Positions 1 through 41,989 of a DNA stretch of 41,989 nucleotides are shown one piece after another (position 1 is the first letter of the stretch; each line of letters starts with the position of its first letter). Under the pieces are notes generated by a model. The model was not told the origin of the DNA, ran no database searches, and saw nothing but the letters and a program-made list of their open reading frames with translations. Position numbers and translations under genes: made by a program. The stretch lies in the IMG/VR virus record IMGVR_UViG_2778261105_000011; one strand, written 5' to 3'. The stretch comes from a virus (Duplodnaviria; Heunggongvirae; Uroviricota; Caudoviricetes).

Positions 1-1248
1 ATGGCACTGAATATTCCATTCAGAAATGCGTACTATCGTTTTGCATCCAGTTACTCATTTCTCTTTTTTATTTCCTGGTCGCTGTGGTGGTCGTTATACG
101 CTATTTGGCTGAAAGGACATCTAGGGTTGACAGGGACGGAATTAGGTACACTTTATTCGGTCAACCAGTTTACCAGCATTCTATTTATGATGTTCTACGG
201 CATCGTTCAGGATAAACTCGGTCTGAAGAAACCGCTCATCTGGTGTATGAGTTTCATCCTGGTCTTGACCGGACCGTTTATGATTTACGTTTATGAACCG
301 TTACTGCAAAGCAATTTTTCTGTAGGTCTAATTCTGGGGGCGCTATTTTTTGGCTTGGGGTATCTGGCGGGATGCGGTTTGCTTGATAGCTTCACCGAAA
401 AAATGGCGCGAAATTTTCATTTCGAATATGGAACAGCGCGCGCCTGGGGATCTTTTGGCTATGCTATTGGCGCGTTCTTTGCCGGCATATTTTTTAGTAT
501 CAGTCCCCATATCAACTTCTGGTTGGTCTCGCTATTTGGCGCTGTATTTATGATGATCAACATGCGTTTTAAAGATAAGGATCACCAGTGCGTAGCGGCA
601 GATGCGGGAGGGGTAAAAAAAGAGGATTTTATCGCAGTTTTCAAGGATCGAAACTTCTGGGTTTTCGTCATATTTATTGTGGGGACGTGGTCTTTCTATA
701 ACATTTTTGATCAACAACTTTTTCCTGTCTTTTATGCAGGTTTATTCGAATCACACGATGTAGGAACGCGCCTGTATGGTTATCTCAACTCATTCCAGGT
801 GGTACTCGAAGCGCTGTGCATGGCGATTATTCCTTTCTTTGTGAATCGGGTAGGGCCAAAAAATGCATTACTTATCGGAGTTGTGATTATGGCGTTGCGT
901 ATCCTTTCCTGCGCGCTGTTCGTTAACCCCTGGATTATTTCATTAGTGAAGTTGTTACATGCCATTGAGGTTCCACTTTGTGTCATATCCGTCTTCAAAT
1001 ACAGCGTGGCAAACTTTGATAAGCGCCTGTCGTCGACGATCTTTCTGATTGGTTTTCAAATTGCCAGTTCGCTTGGGATTGTGCTGCTTTCAACGCCGAC
1101 TGGGATACTCTTTGACCACGCAGGCTACCAGACAGTTTTCTTCGCAATTTCGGGTATTGTCTGCCTGATGTTGCTATTTGGCATTTTCTTCTTGAGTAAA
1201 AAACGCGAGCAAATAGTTATGGAAACGCCTGTACCTTCAGCAATATAG
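1..1248 (+). CDS. MFS transporter of the LacY / oligosaccharide:H+ symporter family (probably host gene flanking the prophage)
   Basis: 415 aa ORF starting with ATG at position 1; polytopic hydrophobic profile; overall similarity in length and motif layout to LacY-type permeases (for example the ...FDQQ..F... and GxxxGPxxNALLIG-like segments). Family call is from memory, not a search. Confidence 0.7.
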   Translation: MALNIPFRNAYYRFASSYSFLFFISWSLWWSLYAIWLKGHLGLTGTELGTLYSVNQFTSILFMMFYGIVQDKLGLKKPLIWCMSFILVLTGPFMIYVYEPLLQSNFSVGLILGALFFGLGYLAGCGLLDSFTEKMARNFHFEYGTARAWGSFGYAIGAFFAGIFFSISPHINFWLVSLFGAVFMMINMRFKDKDHQCVAADAGGVKKEDFIAVFKDRNFWVFVIFIVGTWSFYNIFDQQLFPVFYAGLFESHDVGTRLYGYLNSFQVVLEALCMAIIPFFVNRVGPKNALLIGVVIMALRILSCALFVNPWIISLVKLLHAIEVPLCVISVFKYSVANFDKRLSSTIFLIGFQIASSLGIVLLSTPTGILFDHAGYQTVFFAISGIVCLMLLFGIFFLSKKREQIVMETPVPSAI

Positions 1249-1271
1249 ACGTAAACTTTTTCCGGTTGTTG

Positions 1272-1307
1272 TCGATAGCTCTATATCCCTCAACCGGAAA
1301 ATAATAA
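1272..1307. terminator. Inverted repeat (CCGGTTG ... CAACCGG, 7 bp stem, long loop) just after the transporter stop
   Basis: Direct reading of sequence; no clean U-run on either strand, so terminator function is uncertain. Confidence 0.3.
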
Positions 1308-1777
1308 TAGTAAAATGCTTAGCCCTGCTAATAATCGCCTAATCCAAACGCCTCATTCATGTTCTGGTACAGTCGCTCAAATGTACTTCAGATGCGCGGT
1401 TCGCTGATTTCCAGGACATTGTCGTCATTCAGTGACCTGTCCCGTGTATCACGGTCCTGCGAATTCATCAAGGAATGCATTGCGGAGTGAAGTATCGAGT
1501 CACGCCATATTTCGCTATCAGGATTCTGTGTGATGGTTACATCGCCCGGCCCAGGGCTGTTTAGTCATCAGCGCTTTCTGACAGTGCTGAGATTTCAACC
1601 TGTTGCAGTAAAAATGAGTAGATATAAGGCAAGTGTGCTGCCAAACCCATCTTTTACGGGGTGAAGGTAGATTTCGTTTGAAGGGTATCTGGTGTCCCCT
1701 GCAGACATCTACTTGAGGCGGCAGGGGATTGATTGGAATGGTGTTTTTTAGATGTGAGAAATATTTTACCCGCTATT

Positions 1778-1978
1778 TTACCCATTAGCGCGGCTTAAGA
1801 GCTTATTTTTGAATTCACAATGGTCACGATATAACCATCGTGCTCGCCCGTGGATAACTTTGGCTTTTGGCAGGTCGCCGGACTTAATCCGGTCGTAGAT
1901 GAAGGTTTTACCAAAGCCAGTATCGGCCATGATGAATTTCAAATCAACCAGTGAATCAGGCTGTAGTTCGTGTTGCAT
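1778..1978 (-). CDS. AlpA-family phage regulatory / excisionase-like protein (likely Xis of this prophage)
   Basis: 66 aa; ATG start; motif pattern ...GFGKTFIYDRIKSGDLPKAKVIHGRARW... fits the AlpA/Xis helix-turn-helix family (TIY..I..G.FPKP...G.R...W). Last gene of the leftward operon. Confidence 0.6.
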   Translation of the reverse strand: MQHELQPDSLVDLKFIMADTGFGKTFIYDRIKSGDLPKAKVIHGRARWLYRDHCEFKNKLLSRANG

Positions 1979-2031
1979 GAGTGCTATCTCCGAATAGGGA
2001 ATCGAACCTGCAAATCAGGTAATAAAAAACC

Positions 2032-2052
2032 GCCATCAGGCGGCTTGGTGTT
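2032..2052 (-). terminator. Rho-independent terminator on minus strand (GCCGCC-TGAT-GGCGG then T6)
   Basis: Hairpin plus U-run read directly from the reverse complement of 2032-2052; lies between the zinc-ribbon gene and the AlpA-like gene. Confidence 0.55.
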
Positions 2053-2109
2053 CTTTCAGTTCTTCAATTCGAATATTGGTTACATTGTTTTAATATATGA
2101 ATAAATAAA

Positions 2110-6171: not shown

Positions 6172-7140
6172 TTAGTAGGTTATTTTTGTTGCGAATACTT
6201 CGCCTTTTACGATGGCTGTTATGATATTTTTAGCAACATCTTCTGATGCGCCAACCTTGATAAGGTCAGCAAGTATTTTGTTATTTACTTCTTTCCGGTG
6301 AGCTTTATCCTTTGCTCTACGCTCTTCTTCGTCCTTGATTCTTTTTTCTTCTGCTATTCTGGCTTGCTCTTTTGCTTCAGCCTCACGACGGATTCGTTCA
6401 GCCTCCTCCTGTGCTTTTCTGCGTTCTGCTTCAATTGCTGCCTGCTTTTCTCTTTCAGCTCGTTCTGCTGCCTCTTTTGCTTCGCGCTGTGCTCGTTGCT
6501 CGGCTTCAATGCGTTCACGCTCTGCACGTTCCGCTGCGGCCTTAGCTTCTGCTTCTCGCCTTGCTGCTGCTTCAATTTCGGCTTTTGCCTTTGCTTCGGC
6601 TTCTGCTCTGGCTTTCTCTTCAGCTTCTCTTTTTAAGCGTTCTTCATGCTCTCGCTTTTCCTGCTCCGCTTTGAGTCTTGCCTCTTCTCTTTGGCGGTCA
6701 AATTCGCGATCCATCAAAATCGCTATTTCATGGTCAGACTCAATTTGCTTTGCGAGAGCTTCAGCTGCTGCCTTAGCTTCTTCTTCGGCTTTAATCCGCG
6801 CCTGTTCTTCCTCATAATCAGTAAGAGGCTGGCGTACCTTGGCTTTCAGCTCATCAAGGCGATCACGCACTGTCTTGCGGTTGGCATCAATTAGCTTTGG
6901 AATTTCCTTCAGTTCAGCAACAAGGTCTTTGCCAAGACCATCGAGATATGTTTTCGTCTGCGCAACTTTATACGCCAGAGAAGCGATCTCCTTTCTGCCC
7001 TTTGCCGTTGCGATATCAGGCACAAAGGACATAACTTCACGTTCAACCTTTTGAAGGATTTCTTCAATCTGGTCGGCAGACTGAAATACAGTCATTGCAT
7101 TTGCTTTTTCAATAACAACTAAATCTGTTACTTCACTCAT
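6172..7140 (-). CDS. Hypothetical protein with very long E/R/K/A-rich predicted single alpha-helix / coiled-coil segment
   Basis: Start ATG at 7140 preceded by GGAGGA; about 150 aa of KAEEEAKAAAE / RREAEAK-type repeats; plus-strand ORFs 6298..6894 are low-complexity shadows of this gene. Confidence 0.5.
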   Translation of the reverse strand: MSEVTDLVVIEKANAMTVFQSADQIEEILQKVEREVMSFVPDIATAKGRKEIASLAYKVAQTKTYLDGLGKDLVAELKEIPKLIDANRKTVRDRLDELKAKVRQPLTDYEEEQARIKAEEEAKAAAEALAKQIESDHEIAILMDREFDRQREEARLKAEQEKREHEERLKREAEEKARAEAEAKAKAEIEAAARREAEAKAAAERAERERIEAEQRAQREAKEAAERAEREKQAAIEAERRKAQEEAERIRREAEAKEQARIAEEKRIKDEEERRAKDKAHRKEVNNKILADLIKVGASEDVAKNIITAIVKGEVFATKITY

Positions 7141-40135: not shown

Positions 40136-40741
40136 TTATATATAACCTTTTGATGTTTTATATGATGTTATCTTGGCAGGGACGCCAGCAATAGTGCAAT
40201 TTCCATCTTTAAAATCTTTGTTAACGACTGCATTCGCGCCTATTGCACAATTGTCACCTATAACTATCTTTCCGTAAATTTTTGCTCCAGGACCAATGTA
40301 GCAATTATCACCAATTACAGGGGATTCAAGTCCTGCTCCAGCTGATGTGCCAATATTCGTACCTACATGAATTCGGCAATTTGCACCTATCCTGGCTCCT
40401 GCGTTAACAACTATGTTACCATAATGTGGTATTGATAACCCTGGACCAAAGGTATTGATAGGTATTGAAAATCCAAGTTTCATTTGAATTTTGCGTAACC
40501 TAAGTCTTGTAATCAGAATTAAAACTTTATTTCCTTTGCAATTAGTAAGATACTCCAACCTCCTTAGCAATCTAAGGAATCTCCATATATCGTTGAATAT
40601 TATATTTTTTAACCTTGACCCCTGAAGCCTCATAGCCTTTTCGTCAAGGAGAAGGTATGACTTGTAATCTTCCTTGCTGCTTATCATTCTATGCTCGCCA
40701 GAAATGTGAATAGGTGTAAAGATTAAGAAAAACCTCAACAT
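40136..40741 (-). CDS. Hexapeptide-repeat (left-handed beta-helix) acetyltransferase of the CysE/LacA/NodL type; probable lysogenic-conversion (surface polysaccharide O-acetylation) gene
   Basis: C-terminal half ...GANCRIHVGTNIGTSAGAG...PVIGDNCYIGPGAKIYGKIVIGDNCAIGANAVVNKDFKDGNCTIAGVPAKI... shows hexapeptide repeats and the ...AGVPA.. motif; very low GC; convergent with and abutting the tailspike stop. An alternative start at 40687 is possible. Confidence 0.65.
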   Translation of the reverse strand: MLRFFLIFTPIHISGEHRMISSKEDYKSYLLLDEKAMRLQGSRLKNIIFNDIWRFLRLLRRLEYLTNCKGNKVLILITRLRLRKIQMKLGFSIPINTFGPGLSIPHYGNIVVNAGARIGANCRIHVGTNIGTSAGAGLESPVIGDNCYIGPGAKIYGKIVIGDNCAIGANAVVNKDFKDGNCTIAGVPAKITSYKTSKGYI

Positions 40742-40831: not shown

Positions 40832-41989
40832 CTACCCCTCCTTTTCATCAAGCCAATCCGCCCACCACTGCATCATTTCTCTGCGCTTATCGAGATACTG
40901 AGCATGGTTGTAAATACCGCGCACAGATCCACCGTTGGCATGTGCCAGCTGCACTTCAATAGCGTCAGCAGGCCATTCGTGCTCGTTCATAATCGTGCTG
41001 AATTCATGCCTGAATCCGTGACCGCTTTCCAGACCTTCATAGCCGATTTGTTTGATCACAAGCAATACCGCGTTCTCGCAGATTGGCTTCTTCTTATCGT
41101 TGCGCCCGGCAAAAACAAACTCTGAGACTGGTTTGGTGATTGAGCTTAGCGTAGTGAGAAGTTCAACCACCTGGTCTGACATCGGGACCACATGAATTTT
41201 GCGTCCCTTCATCACACTGGCGTCGATGGTGATAATCCTGTTTTCAAAATCGACGTTCTTCCATAGCATGGAACGAAGCTCTTTCGTTCTTAGGGCTGTA
41301 TAACGTAAAACTTTGGTCGCAATGAGCGATACGATGCTTCCTGAAAATGTTGCCAGTGCTTTGTTGAATGCAGGGATCTGGTCTGCTGGAAGAAACGGGA
41401 AGTTCTTCTTGCGGTATCCTTTCATGGCATCTGCAAGGTCAGGTGCCGGGTTATATTTAGCCCTGCCGGTGACAATAGCGTAACGGAAAACCTCGCCGCA
41501 TCTTCTGCGGGCTTTGTTGGCTCTCTCCATTGCACCGCGATCTTCAAATCTGCGGATTACTTCAAGAAGTTGCATCGGCTCAATATCCTGAATCTCAAGA
41601 CCGCCGATGATGGGTAAAATGTCGTCATCAAACATTTTGGCAAGTTCAGTTGCATAGCCTACTGACCAGACTTGCTTCTTGTGCTCGTACCATTCCTTGT
41701 AAATCGCACTAAATGAATTGTTGTTAGACGAAGCCTTTTTCGCCTTTACCGGATCGATGCCAACCGAGATGTCTTTCCTCGCAGTCCATGCCTTATCCCT
41801 TGCTTCCTGCAAAGTCATAAGCGGATATTTTCCGACAGTCAGGATTTTCTCCTTACCGTCAATCTTGTAGCGAAGCTGCCATACCTTTTTCCCTGATACA
41901 GGGACATAAAGGTACAGGCCATTACCATCGAGTAGGCGGTATGGTTTTTCTTTCGGCTTTGCTGCTTCAATCTGCTTAACGGTGAGCAT
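40832..41989 (-). CDS. int: Tyrosine integrase of the P4 / IntS-like family
   Basis: 385 aa; N-terminal LTVKQIEAAKPKEKPYRLLDGNGLYLYV... (P4-type arm-binding domain) and C-terminal catalytic region with R...H.R...Y-type motifs (GHGFRHEFST...RGIYNHAQYL); the ATG is the last three bases of the window. Confidence 0.9.
   Translation of the reverse strand: MLTVKQIEAAKPKEKPYRLLDGNGLYLYVPVSGKKVWQLRYKIDGKEKILTVGKYPLMTLQEARDKAWTARKDISVGIDPVKAKKASSNNNSFSAIYKEWYEHKKQVWSVGYATELAKMFDDDILPIIGGLEIQDIEPMQLLEVIRRFEDRGAMERANKARRRCGEVFRYAIVTGRAKYNPAPDLADAMKGYRKKNFPFLPADQIPAFNKALATFSGSIVSLIATKVLRYTALRTKELRSMLWKNVDFENRIITIDASVMKGRKIHVVPMSDQVVELLTTLSSITKPVSEFVFAGRNDKKKPICENAVLLVIKQIGYEGLESGHGFRHEFSTIMNEHEWPADAIEVQLAHANGGSVRGIYNHAQYLDKRREMMQWWADWLDEKEG

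Follow-up and report, generated by a model that had tools for sequence, protein, structure and literature searches.

A KplE1/HK620/Sf6-type recombination module at a very probable torI-side prophage junction in argW, with a conserved box upstream of torI

Introduction

The integrase and excisionase genes of Sf6, HK620, KplE1, and Kapi1 are stated to lie at opposite ends of the prophage, with attP in between (PMC8787464). KplE1, or CPS-53, is a cryptic prophage of Escherichia coli K-12, and its excisionase is TorI, which according to the literature shares the winged-helix excisionase fold. Published work shows that KplE1 excision requires IntS, TorI, and IHF on attL and attR. A 135-bp attR, bounded by the primer attR-IHF2, works in vitro with these three proteins (PMC3509656). 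Excision in the KplE1-type family is proposed to be controlled mainly through the excisionase gene.

The module described here resembles those of lambda and P22 in its heterobivalent tyrosine integrase, small winged-helix excisionase, and arm and core sites, and in an upstream intrinsic terminator that requires read-through. In lambda and P22, attP is located beside the int-xis pair, and the two genes stay together in the prophage, whereas in this module attP separates the two genes. Panis 2010 gives the consequence that int needs its own promoter inside attL, and reports such a promoter for intS, since intS is uncoupled from torI.

The window, meaning the whole stretch of 41,989 nucleotides that was analysed (IMG/VR record IMGVR_UViG_2778261105_000011), begins in a transporter gene and ends at an integrase gene. 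Its positions 1249-2060 very probably represent the torI-side host/prophage junction of a mosaic P22-like prophage in the tRNA-Arg(CCU) gene argW. The recombination module carried by this phage is of the KplE1/HK620/Sf6 type. The layout of the junction is already published for P22-like argW phages, and nothing in the architecture is new.

KplE1 and the window share an identical TorI, the core (pawZ), the T-loop-like box discussed below, the argW target, and intS at the opposite end, and their P arms are the same apart from a few substitutions. However, KplE1 is a 10.2-kb remnant flanked by dsdC, whereas the window holds a full-length prophage of ~40 kb flanked by the csc spacer. The KplE1 core has 16 nt against 15 nt in the window, and to the right of ~2028 KplE1 has ypdJ/yfdT where the window has eag. 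HK620, Sf6, Kapi1, CUS-3, and phiv205-1, whose virion genomes share the order int, attP, and xis, show 96-98% DNA identity over 1690-2083, extending up to 2330 in HK620, which also has the same eag-terminator junction. Sf6 differs by having oac beside int, where the window has a hexapeptide acetyltransferase gene. The nearest relatives of the prophage are phiv205-1, CUS-3, Kapi1, and HK620, all argW integrators. A single phage covers at most 64% of positions 1690-25000, so the prophage is a mosaic.

Recombination genes and gene order

The genes of the module and the terminator that precedes torI are as follows.

1778-1978, minus strand: torI, 66 aa, recombination directionality factor (excisionase) and TorR inhibitor, annotated torI in relatives
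40832-41989, minus strand: intS, 385 aa, P4-type tyrosine integrase at the far prophage end
2027-2046, minus strand: intrinsic terminator after eag, found by a terminator scan as an 8-bp stem followed by TTTTTTATT

The first-pass annotation, made from the sequence of the window, placed an AlpA/Xis-like gene and a P4-like integrase at opposite ends of the prophage, with attP between them in the circular phage. This arrangement is confirmed. The open reading frame at 1778-1978 is identical to TorI (PDB 1Z4H, E 6.6e-43) over its full length. The predicted excisionase function holds, while the AlpA part of the name does not: TorI scores 12.7 bits (E 0.12) against Pfam Phage_AlpA (PF05930), under the gathering threshold of 21 bits, and a search of NCBIfam with TorI gives no match. 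TorI is thus only loosely AlpA-like and is not a member of that family at the level of profile models. IntS contains the Pfam domains Arm-DNA-bind_3, Phage_int_M, and Phage_integrase, matches NCBIfam PRK09692 with E 3.5e-70, and is annotated as intS in relatives with 95-99% DNA identity. The right end of the window is exactly the intS start codon.

The virion genomes of HK620 and Sf6 have the order int, attP core, and hkaC/gene 18, the latter being TorI, which agrees with the published statement for these phages (PMC8787464) and shows that the module is phage-borne. The free genomes of Midgardsormr38, Emek, and phiEt88 also have attP between xis and int. The eag terminator marks a mosaic boundary, where P22-like phages match the window from 2021 rightwards with P22-type eaG DNA, and the divergence of K-12 from the window begins after 2028.

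In the circular phage, the order would be eag, terminator, torI, P arm, core, P′ arm, and intS. IntS would recombine the core of 15-16 nt with the argW 3′ end, which has the same sequence. In the integrated state, intS would adjoin the reconstituted argW just beyond 41989, and torI, the P arm, and the duplicated 15-nt tRNA end (1690-1704) would come to lie ~40 kb away, beside host DNA.

The att core and the position of the junction

The core region comprises three overlapping features.

1690-1704, minus strand: att core, the last 15 nt of argW, sense strand CTGCAGGGGACACCA
1691-1709, minus strand: inferred crossover dyad, with GATGTC at 1704-1709, TGCAGGG at 1697-1703, and GACACC at 1691-1696
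1695-1702 and 1721-1728: inverted repeat TCCCCTGC / GCAGGGGA with an 18-nt spacer, found by a repeat search, one arm lying inside the core

On the plus strand, the core reads TGGTGTCCCCTGCAG and occurs once in the window. It is identical to argW at 7097-7111 of locus L002, and it is the core of KplE1, HK620, and Sf6; the site is annotated in K-12 as the argW pseudogene pawZ. The published KplE1 core is the 16-nt sequence CTGCAGGGGACACCAT (PMC2951348), of which the window has 15 nt. The last base is absent, CCA being followed by G in the host flank here and by T in K-12. The core lies ~75 bp downstream of the torI stop codon, and the offset is +76 in 20 related loci. Homology to HK620 virion DNA starts exactly at window position 1690. 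The left prophage boundary had been proposed to lie between 1250 and 1780, and these observations place it there, at 1690-1704. The earlier label attL does not hold, as published usage names the torI-side junction attR.

The argW gene matches the window in two places, over 15 nt at 1690-1704 and over 16 nt at 1998-2013. In 200 shuffled windows, a longest argW match of 15 nt arises once and one of 16 nt never. Further argW matches longer than 11 nt are absent from the window, and so there is no other att copy in it. The second copy was expected beyond 41989. Strain KD602, with 99.3% identity in the int region, has argW on the minus strand, and 162 nt separate the intS start from the 3′ end of this tRNA gene. 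The second core copy is present within the argW beside intS in both KD602 and K-12. This argW-side junction falls outside the window and is seen in close relatives only (99.3% over the int region).

The uninterrupted locus confirms the junction. A synthetic attB was composed of window 1300-1704, the rest of argW, and the yfdC flank, and was searched in 5,426 complete E. coli genomes. It occurs uninterrupted at 100% identity, and at least 80% of the construct is covered in 1,414 genomes. The annotated empty site has the order cscK, cscB, spacer, tRNA-Arg, and yfdC. Because the synthetic attB is found uninterrupted, the insertion is precise: cscB and positions 1249-1689 are chromosomal, and the DNA from 1705 rightwards is phage.

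Among 49 distinct xis-side cores, TGCAGGG is flanked on the left by G(A/G)TGT(C/A) and on the right by GAC(A/G)CC, which form an inverted repeat. TGCAGGG (1697-1703), flanked by GRTGTC / GACACC, would be the 7-bp overlap region, the crossover position being read from the dyad symmetry alone. The two arms of the TCCCCTGC / GCAGGGGA repeat change jointly in Edwardsiella (TCCCTGCA / TGCAGGGA) and likewise in Rouxiella (CCCCTACA / TGTAGGGG).

The host side of the junction

The DNA to the left of the core comprises a transporter gene and a spacer with remnants of other elements.

1-1248, plus strand: cscB, sucrose/oligosaccharide MFS permease, a host gene
1249-1689, no strand: host intergenic spacer, 441 bp, from cscB to the native argW 3′ end
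1337-1623, minus strand: decayed remnant of the interior of a DUF4942 gene (~aa 38-151 of 281), interrupted by a frameshift and an in-frame stop
1628-1642, minus strand: hairpin resembling a terminator, 48-62 nt past the native 3′ end of argW, from a consensus scan only

CscB matches Pfam LacY_symp with E 1.3e-193, and its relatives are annotated as cscB or oligosaccharide MFS transporter. The gene adjoins argW in prophage-free genomes, and published work locates the csc regulon between dsdX and the variable region at argW (PMC3032704). The spacer is found at 100% identity over its 441 bp in many E. coli genomes, some with a prophage and others without, and in empty sites it runs directly into argW. 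It is native argW-downstream DNA of csc-positive strains. That cscB and the spacer are instead phage cargo, with the true prophage end to the left of the window, has practically no probability and is already refuted, as the order cscB, spacer, argW, and yfdC is contiguous at 100% identity in prophage-free genomes, the spacer is equally conserved in both kinds of genome, and phage genomes match only from 1690 rightwards; the cargo reading arose only from the window starting at cscB. Neither outcome named as contrary to the first-pass reading, a transporter gene and spacer borne by the phage or att repeats elsewhere in the window, is observed.

The interval 1249-1777 (529 bp) was noted to be free of open reading frames of 60 aa or more, and this is correct, the longest having 44 aa. 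An att core, a host gene remnant, or a small RNA had been suggested for it. The first two are present, the core at 1690-1704 and the remnant as a DUF4942 pseudogene. The small RNA is not borne out: a search of Rfam over 1000-2600 at E≤10 gives nothing significant, the best hit reaching 24 bits (E 0.75) where the gathering score is 55.

The DUF4942 fragment is found by tblastn with the DUF4942 protein of strain Nissle (E 1e-18, 50% identity over 76 aa). Residues 76-151 align to 1337-1564 on the minus strand with one in-frame stop, and residues 38-65 align in another frame up to 1623. The RefSeq annotation of the spacer also has a partial DUF4942 pseudogene, and intact copies of the gene have 72-76% DNA similarity over window 1345-1546. 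The intact gene closes a conserved module of CP4-type islands that consists of antirestriction, RadC, CbeA/CbtA, and DUF4942 genes. Because the relic matches the end gene of this module, the spacer is read as debris that an earlier CP4-type island left at the argW hot spot. The likeness to CP4-type islands (CP4-44, CP4-57) comprises the DUF4942 fragment itself and its orientation, which fits an island once attached to argW. In contrast to these islands, the window keeps only ~114 disrupted codons and has no integrase or other island genes. The hairpin at 1628-1642 is possibly the argW terminator, which would now stand downstream of torI and attR.

The phage arm of attR

The phage-derived part of attR has two features.

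1705-1801, minus strand: P arm of the published attR, overlapping the torI 3′ end, from primer mapping
1762-1783, minus strand: two direct repeats TATTTTACCC (sense GGGTAAAATA), 12 nt apart, from a repeat search

With 1 mismatch, window 1782-1801 matches attR-IHF2, the primer at the limit of the 135-bp attR, and the functional arm therefore covers about 1705-1801. The two direct repeats are kept as GGGTAAAA in relatives, again in two copies. Published IntS sites on the P′ arm of attL contain the motif TAAA (PMC2951348). The repeats at 1762-1783 resemble these TAAA-containing arm sites and are candidate arm-type (P) sites for IntS.

The T-loop-like box upstream of torI

The second argW match in the window lies upstream of torI, in a region with a predicted promoter in HK620.

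1998-2013, minus strand: T-loop-like box, 16-mer TTGCAGGTTCGATTCC, identical in 16/16 positions to argW nt 46-61
1985-2023, minus strand: region homologous to HK620 pI, a predicted 'phage integration' promoter with a putative cII site, from the GenBank annotation

A tRNA-like T-loop string had been noted near this place. The string exists, but its coordinates are 1998-2013 and not 1985-2003. Its plus-strand form GGAATCGAACC lies at 1998-2008, and the family-conserved core GTTCGATTCC at 1998-2007, 19-29 nt upstream of the torI ATG. The minimal attR does not include the box, which stands between the eag terminator and the Shine-Dalgarno sequence of torI. The box is phage-borne, being present in HK620, Sf6, and K-12 KplE1. 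In argW, the 16-mer directly abuts the 15-nt core. Antisense nt 1-15 of argW correspond to window 1690-1704 and nt 15-30 to 1998-2013, with order and orientation kept.

The sample for the box comprises 24 Enterobacterales loci, five sequenced phages, and 87 IMG/VR loci, of which 99 are usable. The 87 IMG/VR loci were found with two distant excisionases, those of Emek and phiEt88, as queries. A query of IMG/VR with the TorI alignment returned only E. coli copies with 100% identity. With at most one mismatch, GTTCGATTCC occurs ~29 nt upstream of the xis ATG in 78 of the 99 related loci, which is the unbiased figure. Sixteen representatives, which have less than 80% mutual identity over the surrounding 75 nt and were chosen for having the box, show 99% conservation in the 10 box columns, 51% in the 5′ flank, and 72% in the Shine-Dalgarno region. 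The form AG-GTTCGATTCC is shared across the family, and only the E. coli lineage has the additional TTGC. In Erwinia phage Midgardsormr38, the box occurs twice in tandem, 16 nt apart. Several lineages (L137, L314, L319, L322, and L324) lack it entirely. In some, the loss looks like an indel of 25-27 nt, and a few copies are degenerate.

Several simple roles are rejected. One of them is a tRNA: as first noted, the string does not form a full one, ARAGORN detects none in the window, Rfam has no tRNA match, and the match to argW is limited to 16 nt. An RNA mimic of the T-arm is rejected on RNAalifold, which predicts no conserved pairs across 11 diverse box regions, a T-arm-like stem being possible only in Edwardsiella, Serratia, and phiEt88. 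Lineages differ by 1 nt in the spacing between box and ATG, so the reading frame is not kept and a coding role falls away. A consensus scan finds no sigma-70 promoter at the box. The box is thus a conserved 10-nt element in the torI control region, and is neither a tRNA nor a part of the minimal attR.

Possible roles of the box

The candidates for the function of the box, as they appear from sequence comparison, are an Int site, a TorI site, a part of the predicted pI promoter, or something else. Panis et al. describe the torI promoter as non-characterised, and a literature search found no paper on it. A tentative proposal, possible though still improbable, is that GTTCGATTCC is a new cis-regulatory element of argW-integrating phages in which the T-loop half of attB is copied. 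It would serve as a docking site for the core-binding domain of IntS, for TorI, or for both, and would link excisionase expression to the integration machinery.

The IntS form of this idea, taken by itself, is rather unlikely. The box would mimic the T-loop half of attB, which would be the core-type B half-site of the integrase, and IntS would bind upstream of the torI ribosome-binding site and restrain the excisionase. In argW, 10 bp identical to the box directly adjoin TGCAGGG, the inferred 7-bp overlap. It is constant while the types of excisionase sites and arm sites (GGGTAAAA versus GGGCATA) change, and the argW target is the only other constant. However, the strongly conserved half-site of the phage is GRTGTC and not GATTCC, which would make the box a weak Int site. 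The box also stands alone as a half-site, and the lineages named above do without it.

A sixth TorI binding site, through which TorI would autoregulate its own gene, is unlikely to a similar degree. The TorI sites on attL are 8-nt elements with the cores GTTCG, GATCG, or GTCCG, and TorI is already known to repress PintS (PMC2951348). The box contains a perfect GTTCG and is like site I4 (TGGTTCGC), the tandem pair of Midgardsormr38 would suit such a site, and PtorI is described as uncharacterised. Against this, L305, L311, and L312, in which the excisionase has a different recognition helix (TAKYFYSQINAG) and the int-side repeats are GACGTTAC / CACATTAC and not GTTCG, retain GTTCGATTCC, and phiEt88 likewise retains it despite int-side repeats other than GTTCG. 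The int-side repeats of these three loci and phiEt88 are of the RTTAC or GTAAC type. The conserved stretch also runs five bases (ATTCC) past the 8-nt TorI site. Because the box does not co-vary with excisionase specificity, the TorI operator is weakened as a general explanation.

The third reading, in which the box is the spacer or the -10 region of a predicted cII-activated pI upstream of hkaC, is held in comparable doubt. The promoter annotated at 1664-1702 in the HK620 GenBank record corresponds to window 1985-2023, and its cII site at 1689-1701 to 2010-2022 (offset 321); the same promoter is annotated in Sf6. These HK620 features are, however, predictions of the annotators. The putative cII repeats are spaced by 5 nt and not 6, and the window has TTAC instead of TTGC. 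The upstream half is unconserved in other lineages, whereas the box is conserved, and the sigma-70 scan is empty here.

A functionless relic is very unlikely. An ancestral attP would have had ~30 nt of argW, later split by an insertion of 293 bp comprising torI and the P arm. The two argW pieces do abut exactly in argW, with the same order and orientation. However, the 10-nt centre of the box is invariant in the 16 representative lineages, while the flanks fall to ~51% column identity. The T-loop-like TTCGATGTA is already beside the core in most relatives outside E. coli, which makes a split unnecessary, and among the matches listed (at least 120 IMG/VR contigs) the contiguous 30-mer occurs only within a complete argW gene. 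Only AG-GTTCGATTCC is common to the family, the extra TTGC being limited to the E. coli lineage. The related idea that torI was inserted into a 3′ fragment of the tRNA gene is rejected on the same two observations, the place of TTCGATGTA in relatives and the 30-mer in full argW genes.

Significance

The junction represents one more P22-like lysogen at the argW hot spot. The KplE1-type layout has reportedly been described already by Panis et al., Clark et al., and Casjens et al., and it is also described in the Kapi1 study. For annotation, the prophage boundary is fixed to the base at 1690-1704, cscB and the spacer are assigned to the chromosome, and the spacer free of open reading frames is explained as island debris. 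The conserved T-loop-like box is the only part of possible scientific weight, and it is a modest lead. As a 10-mer that is strictly conserved and keeps a constant distance from the xis start, the box is an obvious candidate for an excision control point: int and xis are uncoupled, published work places the main control of excision at the excisionase gene, and the promoter of this gene is described as uncharacterised.

Host spacer left of the att core

The host DNA left of the att core contains two features.

1337-1623, minus strand: internal fragment of a disrupted DUF4942 gene, within the spacer
1628-1642, minus strand: terminator-like hairpin, about 50 nt past the 3' end of native argW

The DUF4942 fragment is found in empty sites and lysogens alike, and is a remnant left at argW by a CP4-type island. 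The hairpin would lie, in the lysogen, downstream of torI and attR.

Att core and P arm

An inverted repeat and a short reading frame overlap the core and the adjoining phage arm (P arm).

1695-1702 and 1721-1728: 8-nt inverted repeat, one arm within the att core
1654-1785, minus strand: 43-aa ORF across the core, counterpart of HK620 hkaB and Sf6 gene 17

Among the related loci L141, L143, and L140, the repeat arms co-vary in Edwardsiella (TCCCTGCA and TGCAGGGA), and both are altered jointly in Rouxiella (CCCCTACA and TGTAGGGG). Such paired changes in sequence suggest that the repeat is a functional element of the P arm. The 43-aa ORF is probably not a real gene, because its C-terminus is altered by integration. 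In two other loci, L131 and L297, the xis-side core runs on into GGGGACAATCC or GGGGACATTCC rather than into a sequence ending in ACACCA, and in L297 a different integrase-like gene comes next. These departures suggest either that elements are arrayed in tandem at argW or that crossover there has given alternative products.

Gene between the tailspike gene and intS

40136-40741, minus strand: hexapeptide-repeat acetyltransferase gene, flanked by the tailspike gene and intS

The gene is labelled 'serine O-acetyltransferase' in relatives. In Sf6 its place is occupied by the O-antigen acetylase gene oac. The gene in the window may be a seroconversion gene from another enzyme family.

Excisionase gene and its candidate sites

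Strain JNE132847 (locus L003) has an additional 345-nt ORF (2505-2849) in the torI-eag interval, at about window 2020-2100, and this extra ORF occurs in some prophages that are otherwise identical. The difference is a 438-bp indel, which falls exactly on the mosaic boundary beside the T-loop-like box. Erwinia phage Midgardsormr38 (L233) has CAGGTTCGATTCCC twice in tandem at L233 1857-1884, 16 nt apart, 5' of the excisionase gene.

The int-side arm, from the core to the int -35, was compared between loci L305, L311, L312, and L237 and loci L006, L233, and L266. Tandem 8-nt repeats adjoining the int promoter co-vary with the excisionase recognition helix across these loci: helix GKTFIYDRIKSG pairs with GTTCG-type repeats, and helix TAKYFYSQINAG with RTTAC-type repeats. 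The pairing is a clear example of a protein and its binding site co-evolving inside one module family.
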